Source of the DNA: a virus
Lineage: Duplodnaviria > Heunggongvirae > Uroviricota > Caudoviricetes
DNA: 20,481 bases
Strand: one strand, 5' to 3'
Virus record (IMG/VR): IMGVR_UViG_2671180395_000007
Part shown: positions 6,001-9,000 of the stretch, piece after piece
Layout: every line of letters starts with the position of its first letter
Position numbering within the stretch: the first letter of the stretch is position 1
Made by a program: the position numbers

Positions 6001-9000
6001 TTTGCCTGACGAACTGCGTGGTGGTTTTTCACAAACCAGTCAGGGTCGTTAAATGCTGCTCTGGCGCAGGTATACCAATAATTTGTTGCCTCCCTGTTTA
6101 GCCAATAAATACTGATAAATGGCAACCGGATAGACACCATTTTTCGTTGAGACTCTTTCTCGCCAAACATGTGCCCTTTTTTGATGCTAAGGCCAAATCC
6201 AGGTTGAATTAAAAGCATTGTCATGTCCTCTCACATTGAAAATTCAGCAATAAAAAACCCAGCCGAAGCTGGGTTTGTTAAGTTGTCAATTGTCAGTAGC
6301 GATGCAGTGAAGGCGGCAACTCTTTGTTCTTAAGCCTTTCCCATGCCAGAAGGTTCGTCGGCCCGTCAGGCTCATAAATATCTATATCCCGCGTGTGATT
6401 AATTAAAACGCCCCTCGCCCTCCCGATGATATACGAGAACTCATAGCCGTAGTCGTGGCATATGCCGGAATAGCCAGACTGAATCAGTTTTAATGCGGGA
6501 TACAACTCACGGAACAATGCCTGTGAGCGGTTGGCATAATCCCACAGCCAAACAAGGCTGTCTGTTTCTTTTGCGGAAAGCCCGTTGGGCTTCTTCTCTT
6601 GTTTGCCAGTATTTTTCTTGCACTGGCTGAAATAGCAGTCTTCCAGTTTTTCGAACACTTCCCACGCCTGATCGGTTTCGAGCATTTTGGCGTGACGGGC
6701 AGCGCCGCGTTCAGTCCAGAGGATGAGGGAGCGGGTTTTGGGGGAAATTTGCAGGTAACTAAAAGTTACTCGCAAATTTTTCAGATCATCGCCAACGATT
6801 TTGAAATAATGCTTCCCTTCCAGAAAACGAGTTTGATTACGTGAATGATTCATTTTTATGTTGGCAACATCCGTTCCATAAAGATGCGCCAATAGCTCGG
6901 TGGTTATGACAGGGATCTGGTTGTGGGTAATCGGGGAAAGAGTTTCAACTGCGATTTTGGTGGCCATAAGATGATCCTTTTTCTTTGTGAATCATCACCA
7001 CCTGCGACGCCAATCGCTTGGTGGTGAACTGTGCAGGGTTGGCGTAACCGGGAAAAAGGAACCGGCGCGGATTGCTCCGCCCCCACACAGCCCACCATTG
7101 AGATGTGACTGTGCAAACGACAATAAAAAAGACGCTGGCGCGTCTGTTGTCGCCTTTTTCATCCGGGACGCCAATCCCGACGCCAGATTTTGCTGGCGTG
7201 TGAGGAATATAGCCCCGGATAAATCATCGCGTCAATCCCCTTGTATTCCTCGCACGATGTCTTAGCCACCGGATATCCCACAGGTGAGCCGTGTAATTGA
7301 AGGTTTTTACGTCAGATTCTTTTGGGATTGGCTTGCGTTTATTTCTGGAGCGTTTCGTTGGAAGGTATTTGCAGTTTTCGCAGATGATGTCGGTGATACT
7401 TCGTCGCTGTCGCCTCATGCCGCCCTCCTGACGCCCTGCCCGATCGCCATCAATGCCGCTTTGGATACGGTAGTAAACATCCGTCGAGGACTGATGAACG
7501 GTCGCCAAATCAGCAGCATGGAGCCTTTACTGTTTCCCTTCTTCTCCAGCCCCGTCGATGGTTCGATAAAATTAATCCGTCCATCAGTGATAATGCGAAC
7601 TTCGTCAACACTCTCCAGAGCCTTGCTGAACCATCCGACTGACATATCCTCTGGCACAAGCATCACTACCGTCTGTCGCTGTTGTATGCACTGCTCAGCG
7701 GCTTTTTCCACCCACGGCCTGATATTGCTGTACGGTGGGTTATTCCAGATTGCACCGTGGCTTACCCACTCAGAATTGAGCGCGTCGTCGGCCTCAGTTA
7801 GCCAGTGAGCACACAGAGCATTTTTGTCGCTCGCTGCCGAATCCAGCCAGAATCCAAACTCAATATCCAGTGCATCAAAAAGCCAAAGCGGCGTTTGCCA
7901 GCAGTCCTTGTTGTGTGCTGGCGTATTTGATTTGATAGTCATGCAGCCCGATCTCCCCATCGCGCTTTCATTTTTTCATTTGCAAATCGCCAGAATCTTC
8001 CTTTGTGATATGAGCTTTCGCCATTACAGCAACGACTAATTGACGAACTATCAAATCCTTCTCTGACAGCATCCATAGCTGCTTCATAATAAACCTCCTC
8101 CCCAGTTTTCATGTCAGTAGAAATAACAGCTTTACTGGCAGGATGGTCACCACTAAATTTACCTAGCGATATAGGTATTCTTCCATTTTGTTTATATCCG
8201 TGTTTTGAGTTTTCAGAATGTGATACCCATTCAAGGTTATCAGCCCTATTGTCATCTCTTCGCCCATTTTTGTGATTAACTACCAAGCCATCACAGAACC
8301 CTGTACAGAATGCTTTCGCAACTATCCTGTGGGCGCTGTATTTCTTACCGTATACCTTTATTTGAAGATATCCTGTCGACTTGCACTTGAATGGTTTTAC
8401 ACTAGTGCCATTAATTATTTTCTTATATGGCCTCTGTCTGGTTGATGTTACTGTAACTTCCCTCGTAATAGACCTGAAATTTCCTTTATTGCTAACCTGA
8501 TAAAATGGAATCCCTTCGATATCTACCCAAACCTCAATCATAATTCCTCCATTCGCTAAGATGAATTGAGTTCATGGCACAATATGCTTCTATGTAGTCC
8601 ATTATTTCGGATATTTTTTTTACAGATAGAGTCGCCGTACTCTCTCTGATGTTTATTAGCTCACCTTCTAACCCTGATATAATCTCAGGGTGCTGGTTGG
8701 TTGCAATCTGCCAACCAGAAACGAATAACCCCTTCCAAAACTCAATATTTCTTGCTTTTCCGTGATATGTAGCCTTCTTACTTATTTCAGATAGCATCGC
8801 GTGAAGGCGTGCATTTTGCCGAATGCTGCGGTTGCGTTCCTGAATGGTTACTACGATTGGTTTGGTTGGGTCTGGAAGAATTTGCTGGATAGCTTGAATG
8901 GCGTTCTGCTGATGGATGGGGCTTCTTAGTTCAAATGTTAGTTTCCTCATCACCCTTAATCCTCTCGAAGTTCTTCTCGAAGTTTTTGGTGTCGAACACT

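Follow-up and report, generated by a model that had tools for sequence, protein, structure and literature searches.

Intronless homing accompanied by co-conversion or marker exclusion has been shown experimentally for SegF, SegG, SegB, and MobE, the free-standing homing endonucleases of T-even phages (PMC2330249, PMC2790892, PMC2988022). An in-frame fusion of an endonuclease with a host gene has been noted at gene 31 of the P22-like phage epsilon34 (PMC2629481), the nrdD gene of FelixO1-like phages is interrupted by a homing endonuclease gene (PMC4837284), and proteins resembling the recombination mediator Orf/NinB are fused to an HNH (DUF968) domain in phages of Gram-positive bacteria (PMC4118853, PMC2034487). 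Here we describe an arrangement at the ninB gene of the Caudoviricetes virus record IMGVR_UViG_2671180395_000007 from IMG/VR, a stretch of 20,481 nucleotides (nt), or 20.5 kb, hereafter referred to as the window; all coordinates refer to the whole window. In this stretch, a NUMOD4-HNH endonuclease gene related to I-HmuI appears to have travelled with the 3' two-thirds of the ninB gene that natively precedes it, and the resulting 855-nt unit has replaced codons 43 to 137 of a resident ninB of the lambda/Sf6 type. The endonuclease open reading frame (ORF) reads on through the tail of the old ninB, whose stop codon and coupling to dam it has taken over. At a probability of about 0.65, we favor a free-standing homing-endonuclease cassette spread by intronless homing with co-conversion, in which a 52-nt patch of ninB and the 31-nt tail serve as homology arms. 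Searches of open-access literature turned up no description of this ninB cassette, its relic tail, or a ninB hotspot in lambdoid or Shiga toxin (Stx) phages, which is weak evidence of absence.

All genes in the ninB neighborhood lie on the minus strand, with the HNH ORF followed downstream by dam and then by ninE. The relevant features are as follows (aa, amino acids).

9124-9339, minus strand: DUF7301 gene
8931-9119, minus strand: ORF of 62 aa
8534-8950, minus strand: chimeric ninB, 138 aa, for the recombination mediator NinB/Orf (Pfam NinB, PHROG 72)
8825-8950, minus strand: resident 5' portion of ninB, lambda/Sf6 type, codons 1-42, including the 52-nt patch 8825-8876
8825-8876, minus strand: conserved 52-nt ninB patch, the probable left crossover zone
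8534-8824, minus strand: imported 3' portion of ninB, clade-2 type (see below), codons 43-138, AT-rich, with the end ...SEWRNYD
7970-8824, minus strand: putative mobile cassette (ninB 3' portion plus HNH body), 855 nt
8534-8541, minus strand: 8-nt overlap of the ninB stop and the HNH start, ATGATTGA
7939-8541, minus strand: NUMOD4-HNH endonuclease ORF, 200 aa, I-HmuI-like, free-standing
7939-7969, minus strand: relic 3' end of the resident lambda-type ninB, 31 nt, candidate right-hand homology arm
7415-7942, minus strand: gene for a phage Dam N6-adenine methyltransferase, resident flank (Pfam Dam, 1e-64)

The HNH ORF ends with ...FANEKMKARWGDRAA*, and its final nine residues, KARWGDRAA, are those of lambda NinB, whose translation (J02459) ends with ...LALEWKARWGDRAA*. 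Relatives of the endonuclease (52 to 77% identity) are mostly 190 to 194 aa long and end just past a conserved ...HKGRFWRFA-D/N-E... segment, with such termini as ...ERMAA (...WRFADERMAA in the 193-aa forms), ...EGRAA, or ...ERVNA; the window protein tracks them up to ...NEKM and then changes to KARWGDRAA. Since these relatives end before the tail and lambda NinB shares it, the last nine codons are not the nuclease's own but those of lambda-type ninB, and they are best interpreted as a relic of the resident lambda-type ninB that is read in frame. Positions 7939 to 7969 (G AAA GCG CGA TGG GGA GAT CGG GCT GCA TGA), which encode KARWGDRAA*, are identical at 31 of 31 positions to the ninB 3' end of Stx1_JNE110649, a phage without the HNH gene. 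The stop codon TGA (7939-7941) overlaps the start codon of dam (7940-7942) in an ATGA junction. Capture of the tail in frame thus preserves the stop codon as well as the ATGA link with the gene that follows, and it leaves a portable 31-nt homology arm; a join differing by one base, at ATGG, would have fused HNH to Dam. The initial annotation of this stretch had given KARWGDRAA as the C terminus of lambda NinB, pointed to the ATGA junction into the next gene, and proposed that the original ninB tail was fused in frame to the endonuclease, all of which is borne out by these comparisons.

The breakpoints were mapped by aligning the window with the HNH-less ninB regions of lambda, Lambda_4B5, Sf6, 933W, and Stx1_JNE110649 and with two other HNH carriers, a comparison that the same annotation had suggested. 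From the ninB start to position 8825, the window is near-identical to Sf6 and ~85% identical to lambda; between 8824 and 7970, it bears no relation to the HNH-less alleles; and from 7969 through dam, it again shows 97 to 100% identity to HNH-less phages, the dam region being 96 to 99% identical in these phages from ~7969/7949 onward. The left breakpoint thus falls after 8825, at the edge of the conserved patch 8825-8876, and the right one at 7969/7970, 31 nt short of the resident ninB stop. At the right join, the HNH side reads ...AAAATG/AAAGCG (the slash marks the join) and the resident sequence reads ...GAATGG AAAGCG, a microhomology of 4 nt with a one-base slip (AATG-AAAGCG versus AATGGAAAGCG).

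The product of ninB matches Pfam NinB (PF05772) at 2.5e-40 over model positions 2 to 129 of 131 and PHROG 72 at 1.1e-42, and its RefSeq relatives are annotated as “recombination protein NinB.” Its residues 1 to 43 are of the lambda/Sf6 type, being identical to those of Sf6 and of a common lambda-type allele (P0102, with 4,499 member sequences). By protein search and alignment, residues 44 to 138 fall in a distinct natural clade of NinB, referred to here as clade-2, which is recognizable by the motifs ...QNARLHAMLS...FWKGLFVSGWQIAT...GLEGEFINIRESTA...YIEAYCAMN... and by native short C termini, such as ...SEWRNYD/E, ...DDWRGYDN, and ...SDGGRYE. The same NinB body and short tail are found in the clade-2 relatives P0004 to P0023, the full-length members (P0008 to P0011 and P0018) have N termini of their own that are not of the lambda type, and the clade-2 3' part also follows two further types of N terminus (P0002 and P0006). 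At the nucleotide level, the imported ninB 3' part is only ~45% identical to the central part of Sf6 ninB (~55% divergence), and in the protein alignment the clade-2 end lies ~13 residues upstream of the lambda NinB end. The resident gene is therefore a true chimera and not a drifted lambda allele, in line with the earlier remark that the N terminus of NinB is lambda-like and the rest diverged. That the chimeric NinB is functional is only suggested, by its intact frame and by dN/dS values of 0.04 to 0.17 relative to its relatives. A run of eight A residues in the imported part (~8615-8622, GTAAAAAAAATATCC) is frameshifted at loci L045 and L046, where NinB then ends with ...SVKKYPK*; this run is a likely slippage hotspot.

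Base composition follows the same boundaries. Across ~7900-8800, the GC content is 0.37 to 0.43 versus ~0.5 on either side, and the segment 7970-8824, at 0.39, is the lowest-GC 855-nt stretch of the window, with no other position equally low (855-nt windows have a mean GC of 0.474 with a standard deviation of 0.04; the whole-window value is 0.475). By segment, GC is 0.465 in the ninB 5' part (8825-8953), 0.395 in the ninB 3' part, 0.386 in the HNH body, 0.61 in the final 31 nt of the HNH ORF, and 0.519 in dam. The AT-rich block comprising HNH and the 3' part of ninB, which had been noted in a region of higher GC, is therefore real in quantitative terms.

The two parts of the block are inherited together. 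In a set of 5,426 complete Escherichia coli genomes, the same 77 genomes are matched, in 80 places, whether the query is the ninB 3' part, the HNH gene, or both joined; the joint query is covered to at least 80% in 77 of 77 genomes and is contiguous in 80 of 80 places. A copy of the clade-2 ninB allele lacking HNH is found neither in this set of E. coli genomes nor among ~30 IMG/VR contigs whose NinB is at least 78% identical, in all of which the two parts are likewise contiguous. A wider ninB-HNH-dam query of 1,751 nt is matched in part by 1,892 E. coli genomes, mostly over the ninB 5' or dam portions, and in the phage collection 62 of the 338 matching records cover at least 80% of it. The cassette is thus polymorphic for presence or absence at one locus among related genomes. 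The initial annotation had held that the cassette brought the divergent ninB 3' portion with it and had named HNH-less relatives with the same allele as evidence to the contrary; none turned up in either set, and the breakpoints inside ninB at both ends, together with the 77/77 linkage, speak for the claim. Co-inheritance of the clade-2 ninB 3' part with HNH may accordingly be regarded as established as a pattern, not as a process.

Fourteen distinct contexts of the cassette were compared segment by segment, with identities given relative to the window:

Upstream DNA: <33% identity, unrelated (window-identical in L019)
ninB, 8877-8953: 38-100% identity, at least three allele classes
52-nt patch, 8825-8876: 92-100% identity in 13 of 14 contexts, 56% in L047
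ninB 3' part: 99-100% identity
HNH body: 98-100% identity
31-nt tail: 81-100% identity
Downstream DNA: dam (93-100% identity) or unrelated ninE or ninC-like genes

A discrete 855-nt unit has thus moved among many backgrounds, and its near-identity across far more diverged flanks indicates that this particular block has been transferred recently and more than once. Variants of the tail (GATCGG, GACAGG, GACCGG, GATAAA, and others) co-vary with the downstream gene, so the tail probably acts as the right-hand homology arm. Since the ...AAAATG/AAAGCG junction is identical everywhere, the joining of HNH to the tail arose once. On the left, polymorphisms within the 52-nt patch (L040, L041, and L043) put the crossover at differing points, inside the patch or, in L043 and L047, further to the right; such variability among contexts resembles that of co-conversion tracts. 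The ninB-HNH-dam block lies behind a Toprim/DnaB-like primase-helicase module in the window (10091-11971) and behind lambda-type O/P/ren genes in the Stx2a prophage of O157:H7 TW14359 (L156), and these differing replication modules are a further sign of module shuffling around the cassette.

A likely donor architecture is seen in four metagenomic lambdoid contigs (L008 to L011), in which a 138-aa clade-2 NinB is followed by a 193-aa HNH protein with an identical 8-nt overlap, which is present in all clade-2 ninB/HNH pairs. The downstream genes vary among these contigs, and NinB and HNH diverge in parallel across them; the GC content of the ninB 3' part plus HNH in such donor-type relatives is 0.42 to 0.45, versus 0.47 to 0.51 in the flanks. 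Clade-2 ninB is thus natively paired with this HNH family in other enterobacterial phages. A scan of species-representative genomes with a clade-2 NinB profile returned only 7 loci, mostly of distant alphaproteobacterial NinBs without HNH.

The RefSeq annotation of the gene is already NUMOD4/HNH endonuclease. The ORF contains the Pfam domains NUMOD4 (1.4e-13; 51.3 bits, cutoff 23.4) and HNH_3 (2.4e-11, above cutoff) and a weak match to the I-HmuI NUMOD-like family PF22083 (19.2 bits, under the cutoff of 27), and its residues 125 to 191 match PHROG helix-turn-helix and HNH families. I-HmuI (PDB 1U3E) is the only relative with a solved structure (E = 3.7e-14, residues 55 to 186). The catalytic block VVNHKNG.RDDNR.DNLEW....N..H is invariant over 19 aligned relatives and aligns with the DHKDG...N...N core of I-HmuI. 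PADLOC assigns the ORF to a generic “homing endonuclease” model (1.1e-26) and gave no defense-system context for the locus. No intron was detected here by Rfam at the gathering threshold, and the ORF overlaps both the ninB stop and the dam start; for these two reasons, it is regarded as free-standing. With dN of 0.15 to 0.28 relative to diverged relatives (dS is saturated) and a dN/dS of 0.26 in one close pair, the nuclease appears to be under purifying selection, and with its catalytic residues intact it looks functional. Decayed copies also exist, including two that are frameshifted past about residue 146 (P0124 and P0127) and one, in IMGVR_UViG_2713896798_000010 (L025/L104), in which the HNH gene is interrupted by an insertion of ~1.1 kb. 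Together with the ninB frameshift of L045/L046, these copies fit the cycle of gain and decay of selfish endonuclease genes.

Beyond the close relatives, 51 more distant HNH loci were collected from IMG/VR, of which ~21 lie directly after a NinB of some clade, ~10 after a weak NinB-like ORF (in L110, Pfam NinB at 3.6e-5), 6 after DUF1367, and 1 after RecT. DUF1367 was considered as a cryptic NinB homologue and dismissed, hhalign detecting no relation (probability 0.1%). In L105, L107, and L108, where HNH (~2995-3585) follows DUF1367 instead of NinB, the protein differs from the ninB-associated 193-aa forms in its N-terminal half and is near-identical to them in its C-terminal half (...ERMAA), so that the endonuclease gene itself looks mosaic. 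HNH-less NinBs of many clades end with ...AA* or ...YA* and a GCNGCATGA junction into the next gene, and most ninB-adjacent HNH ORFs end likewise, with ...AA* and the junction (loci L013-L078 and L105-L148), which suggests that all such ORFs may keep at least the last two ninB codons. Longer NinB-like tails are present on other HNH ORFs, namely, P0135 (...RLEIEWATRWGKS) and L126 (...RGVVWSDRARQEIVDDWESA). At L048 (3001-3961) and L050 (3004-3874), a clade-2 NinB without NUMOD4-HNH is followed, in the same overlapping position, by an HNH/AP2-type endonuclease, which in L048 carries the NinB-like tail ...AIEWASRFGDKQRAAA. At L047 (IMGVR_UViG_2751185961_000005, 2331-4000), the first 33 codons of the window-type ninB are joined in frame to the gene for an HNH_3+AP2 endonuclease; next come a ninB with a third type of N terminus and a clade-2 3' part and then NUMOD4-HNH with the relic tail, a ninB thus invaded from both ends, in mirror image. 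Thus, at least two endonuclease families seem to have been independently fused to NinB tails or heads.

A broader proposal would make ninB a dedicated homing hotspot, with at least two HNH lineages (NUMOD4 and HNH/AP2) specialized on ninB ends across proteobacterial phages, each delivering a replacement segment and capturing terminal codons, stop/start signals, and translational coupling, and with the nuclease co-adapted with NinB as a self-sufficient “cut-and-repair” module in which NinB/Orf would promote the repair of breaks made by the accompanying nuclease. It implies a NinB relic in every ninB-associated member, and we hold both the proposal and this implication to be unlikely, although not outlandish; a family-wide guild of ninB endonucleases is only partly supported.

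In the mechanism that we favor, the founding junction between HNH and the ninB tail would have formed by a single illegitimate or microhomology-mediated joining. During co-infection or a phage-prophage encounter, the nuclease would cut or nick an HNH-less lambda-type ninB, the clade-2 segment that it carries being presumed resistant to cleavage. Repair by Red, RecA, or Orf would then copy the nuclease gene and the adjacent resistant ninB segment into the broken genome, and the exchange would be resolved in the nearest homology on either side. In later spread, the tail would provide the right homology arm into any lambda-type ninB, whichever gene comes next. A cassette of this kind would account for the observed anatomy and breakpoints, the linkage, the single-origin junction, the spread through divergent backgrounds, the variable left crossovers, and the conserved nuclease; that HNH cuts lambda-type ninB, that the imported segment resists it, and that cleavage rather than ordinary recombination drives the transfer is what we infer in addition.

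Ordinary lambdoid mosaicism offers another account, in which the block is an exchangeable module moved by general or Red recombination at conserved boundaries and HNH is passive or has an unrelated role (e.g., exclusion of competitors), with no self-driven transfer. The left junction does lie in a 52-nt patch conserved among lambda-type ninB genes and the right one adjoins the conserved GCTGCATGA gene-boundary motif; the neighboring nin genes are mosaic too, with dam present or absent and the upstream genes variable, and some frameshifted or interrupted HNH copies persist. However, module exchange leaves unexplained why at least two endonuclease families became independently fused to NinB tails or heads, and it sits poorly with a cassette that is 98 to 100% identical across backgrounds whose flanks are far more diverged, with the perfect linkage of the ninB 3' part to HNH, and with a protein built like a site-specific homing nuclease rather than a generic one and apparently under purifying selection. 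We consider this account improbable, if still worth serious attention, and co-conversion after cleavage and ordinary exchange of lambdoid modules are processes that sequence data alone cannot separate.

Selection on phage recombination might instead keep the two genes together as a functional module, HNH making or processing DNA ends that NinB/Orf loads with recombinase. NinB is followed by this HNH family at 35 to 100% HNH identity and in several NinB clades, the family also occurs after DUF1367 and RecT, the 8-nt overlap couples both genes translationally, and published NinB/Orf-like-HNH fusions in phages of Gram-positive bacteria, along with the suggestion that NinB collaborates with nucleases (PMC2034487, PMC4118853), lend the idea some plausibility. 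Yet those fusions use a different, zinc-finger HNH of the DUF968 type; no HNH accompanies most lambda-type and many clade-2-like NinB genes, and the HNH family has members with no NinB at all. An architecture of the NUMOD4/I-HmuI kind belongs to homing enzymes with sequence specificity, and the relic tails and the sporadic distribution among near-identical phages would go unexplained. On balance, such a module is doubtful. A third alternative, which was rejected and which we regard as highly improbable, is that the AT-rich ninB and the tail began as one gene, which the endonuclease split between ...EW and KARWGDRAA, and that the ...RNYD* end would derive from the insertion. What recommends it is the superficial likeness of ...SEW/RNYD to ...LEW/KARWGDRAA and the position of the HNH Shine-Dalgarno-like GGAGG and ATG within the last ninB codons. 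But the clade has this short end natively: some clade-2-like NinBs without HNH are of similar length (L051 and L052, ending with ...IRLSAPEDAWG), clade members that precede a different endonuclease family are also short-ended, and the clade-2 end falls well upstream of the lambda end in the alignment. The tail, in turn, is GC-rich (0.61), unlike the AT-rich body, and identical to resident-type alleles, and one and the same cassette is found with various tails and heads. The native ...WRNYD-type end, the resident-type composition of the tail, and the exchangeable heads and tails thus decide against the split gene.

Homing with co-conversion has its own difficulties. The support for cleavage, for a target site, and for biased inheritance would be comparative throughout. 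Homologous exchange of the ordinary lambdoid kind would also be expected at the left join, which sits in a conserved patch, and the right arm, at just 31 nt, is short for recombination, although lambda Red can use homology of this length. The NinB-HNH adjacency is very old and widespread and could also reflect functional coupling. I-HmuI nicks intron-plus and intron-minus DNA alike, and the allele carried with the nuclease need not be resistant. Neither the phage nor the E. coli collection yielded a strictly isogenic empty site, in place of which Sf6, JNE110649, 4B5, and lambda served as comparators. The segment 8826-9119 (the 62-aa ORF and this ninB 5' end) co-occurs with the cassette in both collections: there are 62 full-length matches to 8826-9500 in phages and 57 to 8826-9119 in E. 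coli, apparently all in cassette carriers. Other Stx phages diverge from the window at ~9106.

Elsewhere in the window, the minus strand of 7017-7212 matches the Rfam families C4 antisense RNA (74 bits), a1/b1 target (50 bits), and isrK (79 bits), directly upstream of an ORF6N/P22_AR_C antirepressor gene (6293-6967); together they look like a P1-like c4-ant or isrK-type immunity module placed between ninE and ant. An interval of ~900 nt (2808-3710) separates Q (3710-4183) from a SASA/DUF1737 esterase gene (754-2808). Stx phages carry tRNAs and stx in the Q-to-esterase interval. ARAGORN found no tRNA in 2808-3710, where the only Rfam match is STnc100 (2803-2948); in the nearest E. coli relatives, tRNA-Ile and two tRNA-Arg are annotated under the match to this region. 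The window appears to be an stx-less relative of Stx phages.

Cassette carriers include the Stx2a prophages of O157:H7 TW14359, EC4115, and SS17 and those of O121:H19 and O103:H2. If the favored reading is right, the locus would offer a concrete and experimentally tractable case of endonuclease-associated gene conversion shaping lambdoid and Stx-type prophages, whose mosaicism is usually credited to general recombination alone, and a rewritten NinB/Orf in clinically important lineages could affect recombination between phage and prophage and be of use as a lineage marker. The relic tail illustrates how a selfish gene can keep operon translation intact while retaining a portable homology arm, and the mirrored invasion of the ninB 5' end (L047) and the second endonuclease family (L048) suggest repeated targeting of ninB. 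Conceptually the step forward is modest, since T-even phages already provide well-established cases of intronless homing with co-conversion.

Of the described systems, the T-even Seg and MobE genes share with the ninB cassette an endonuclease gene that lies outside any intron or intein and beside a conserved gene, a presence/absence polymorphism, and co-inheritance of the neighboring allele. They differ in that the cassette resides in a prophage of the temperate lambdoid or Stx type instead of a T4-like phage, in that the Seg enzymes are of the GIY-YIG type in contrast to the NUMOD4-HNH type of the cassette, and in that the nuclease ORF here lies in frame within the 3' end of the target gene, using its last codons, stop, and ATGA coupling. 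The match to I-HmuI, an HNH nicking homing endonuclease of Bacillus phage SPO1, spans the HNH core and the putative C-terminal DNA-binding part; however, I-HmuI is encoded within a group I intron of a DNA polymerase gene, whereas no intron is found by Rfam at the window HNH gene, which overlaps ninB and dam, and the metal-ligand Asp of the I-HmuI DHKDG motif is an Asn (NHKNG) that is invariant across the HNH family. Like the DUF968 fusions, the locus associates a NinB-family mediator with an HNH nuclease, but those are single polypeptides with a zinc-finger HNH and are proposed to be recombination nucleases, whereas the window has two overlapping ORFs with an I-HmuI-type nuclease, the only fusion being that of the nuclease to a nine-residue NinB relic. 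The epsilon34 and nrdD cases find their counterpart in L047, which has the same type of head fusion at ninB; in the window, in contrast, ninB has not been left broken but has a complete replacement 3' portion, yielding a full-length chimeric NinB with only a nine-codon scrap of the old gene on the nuclease.

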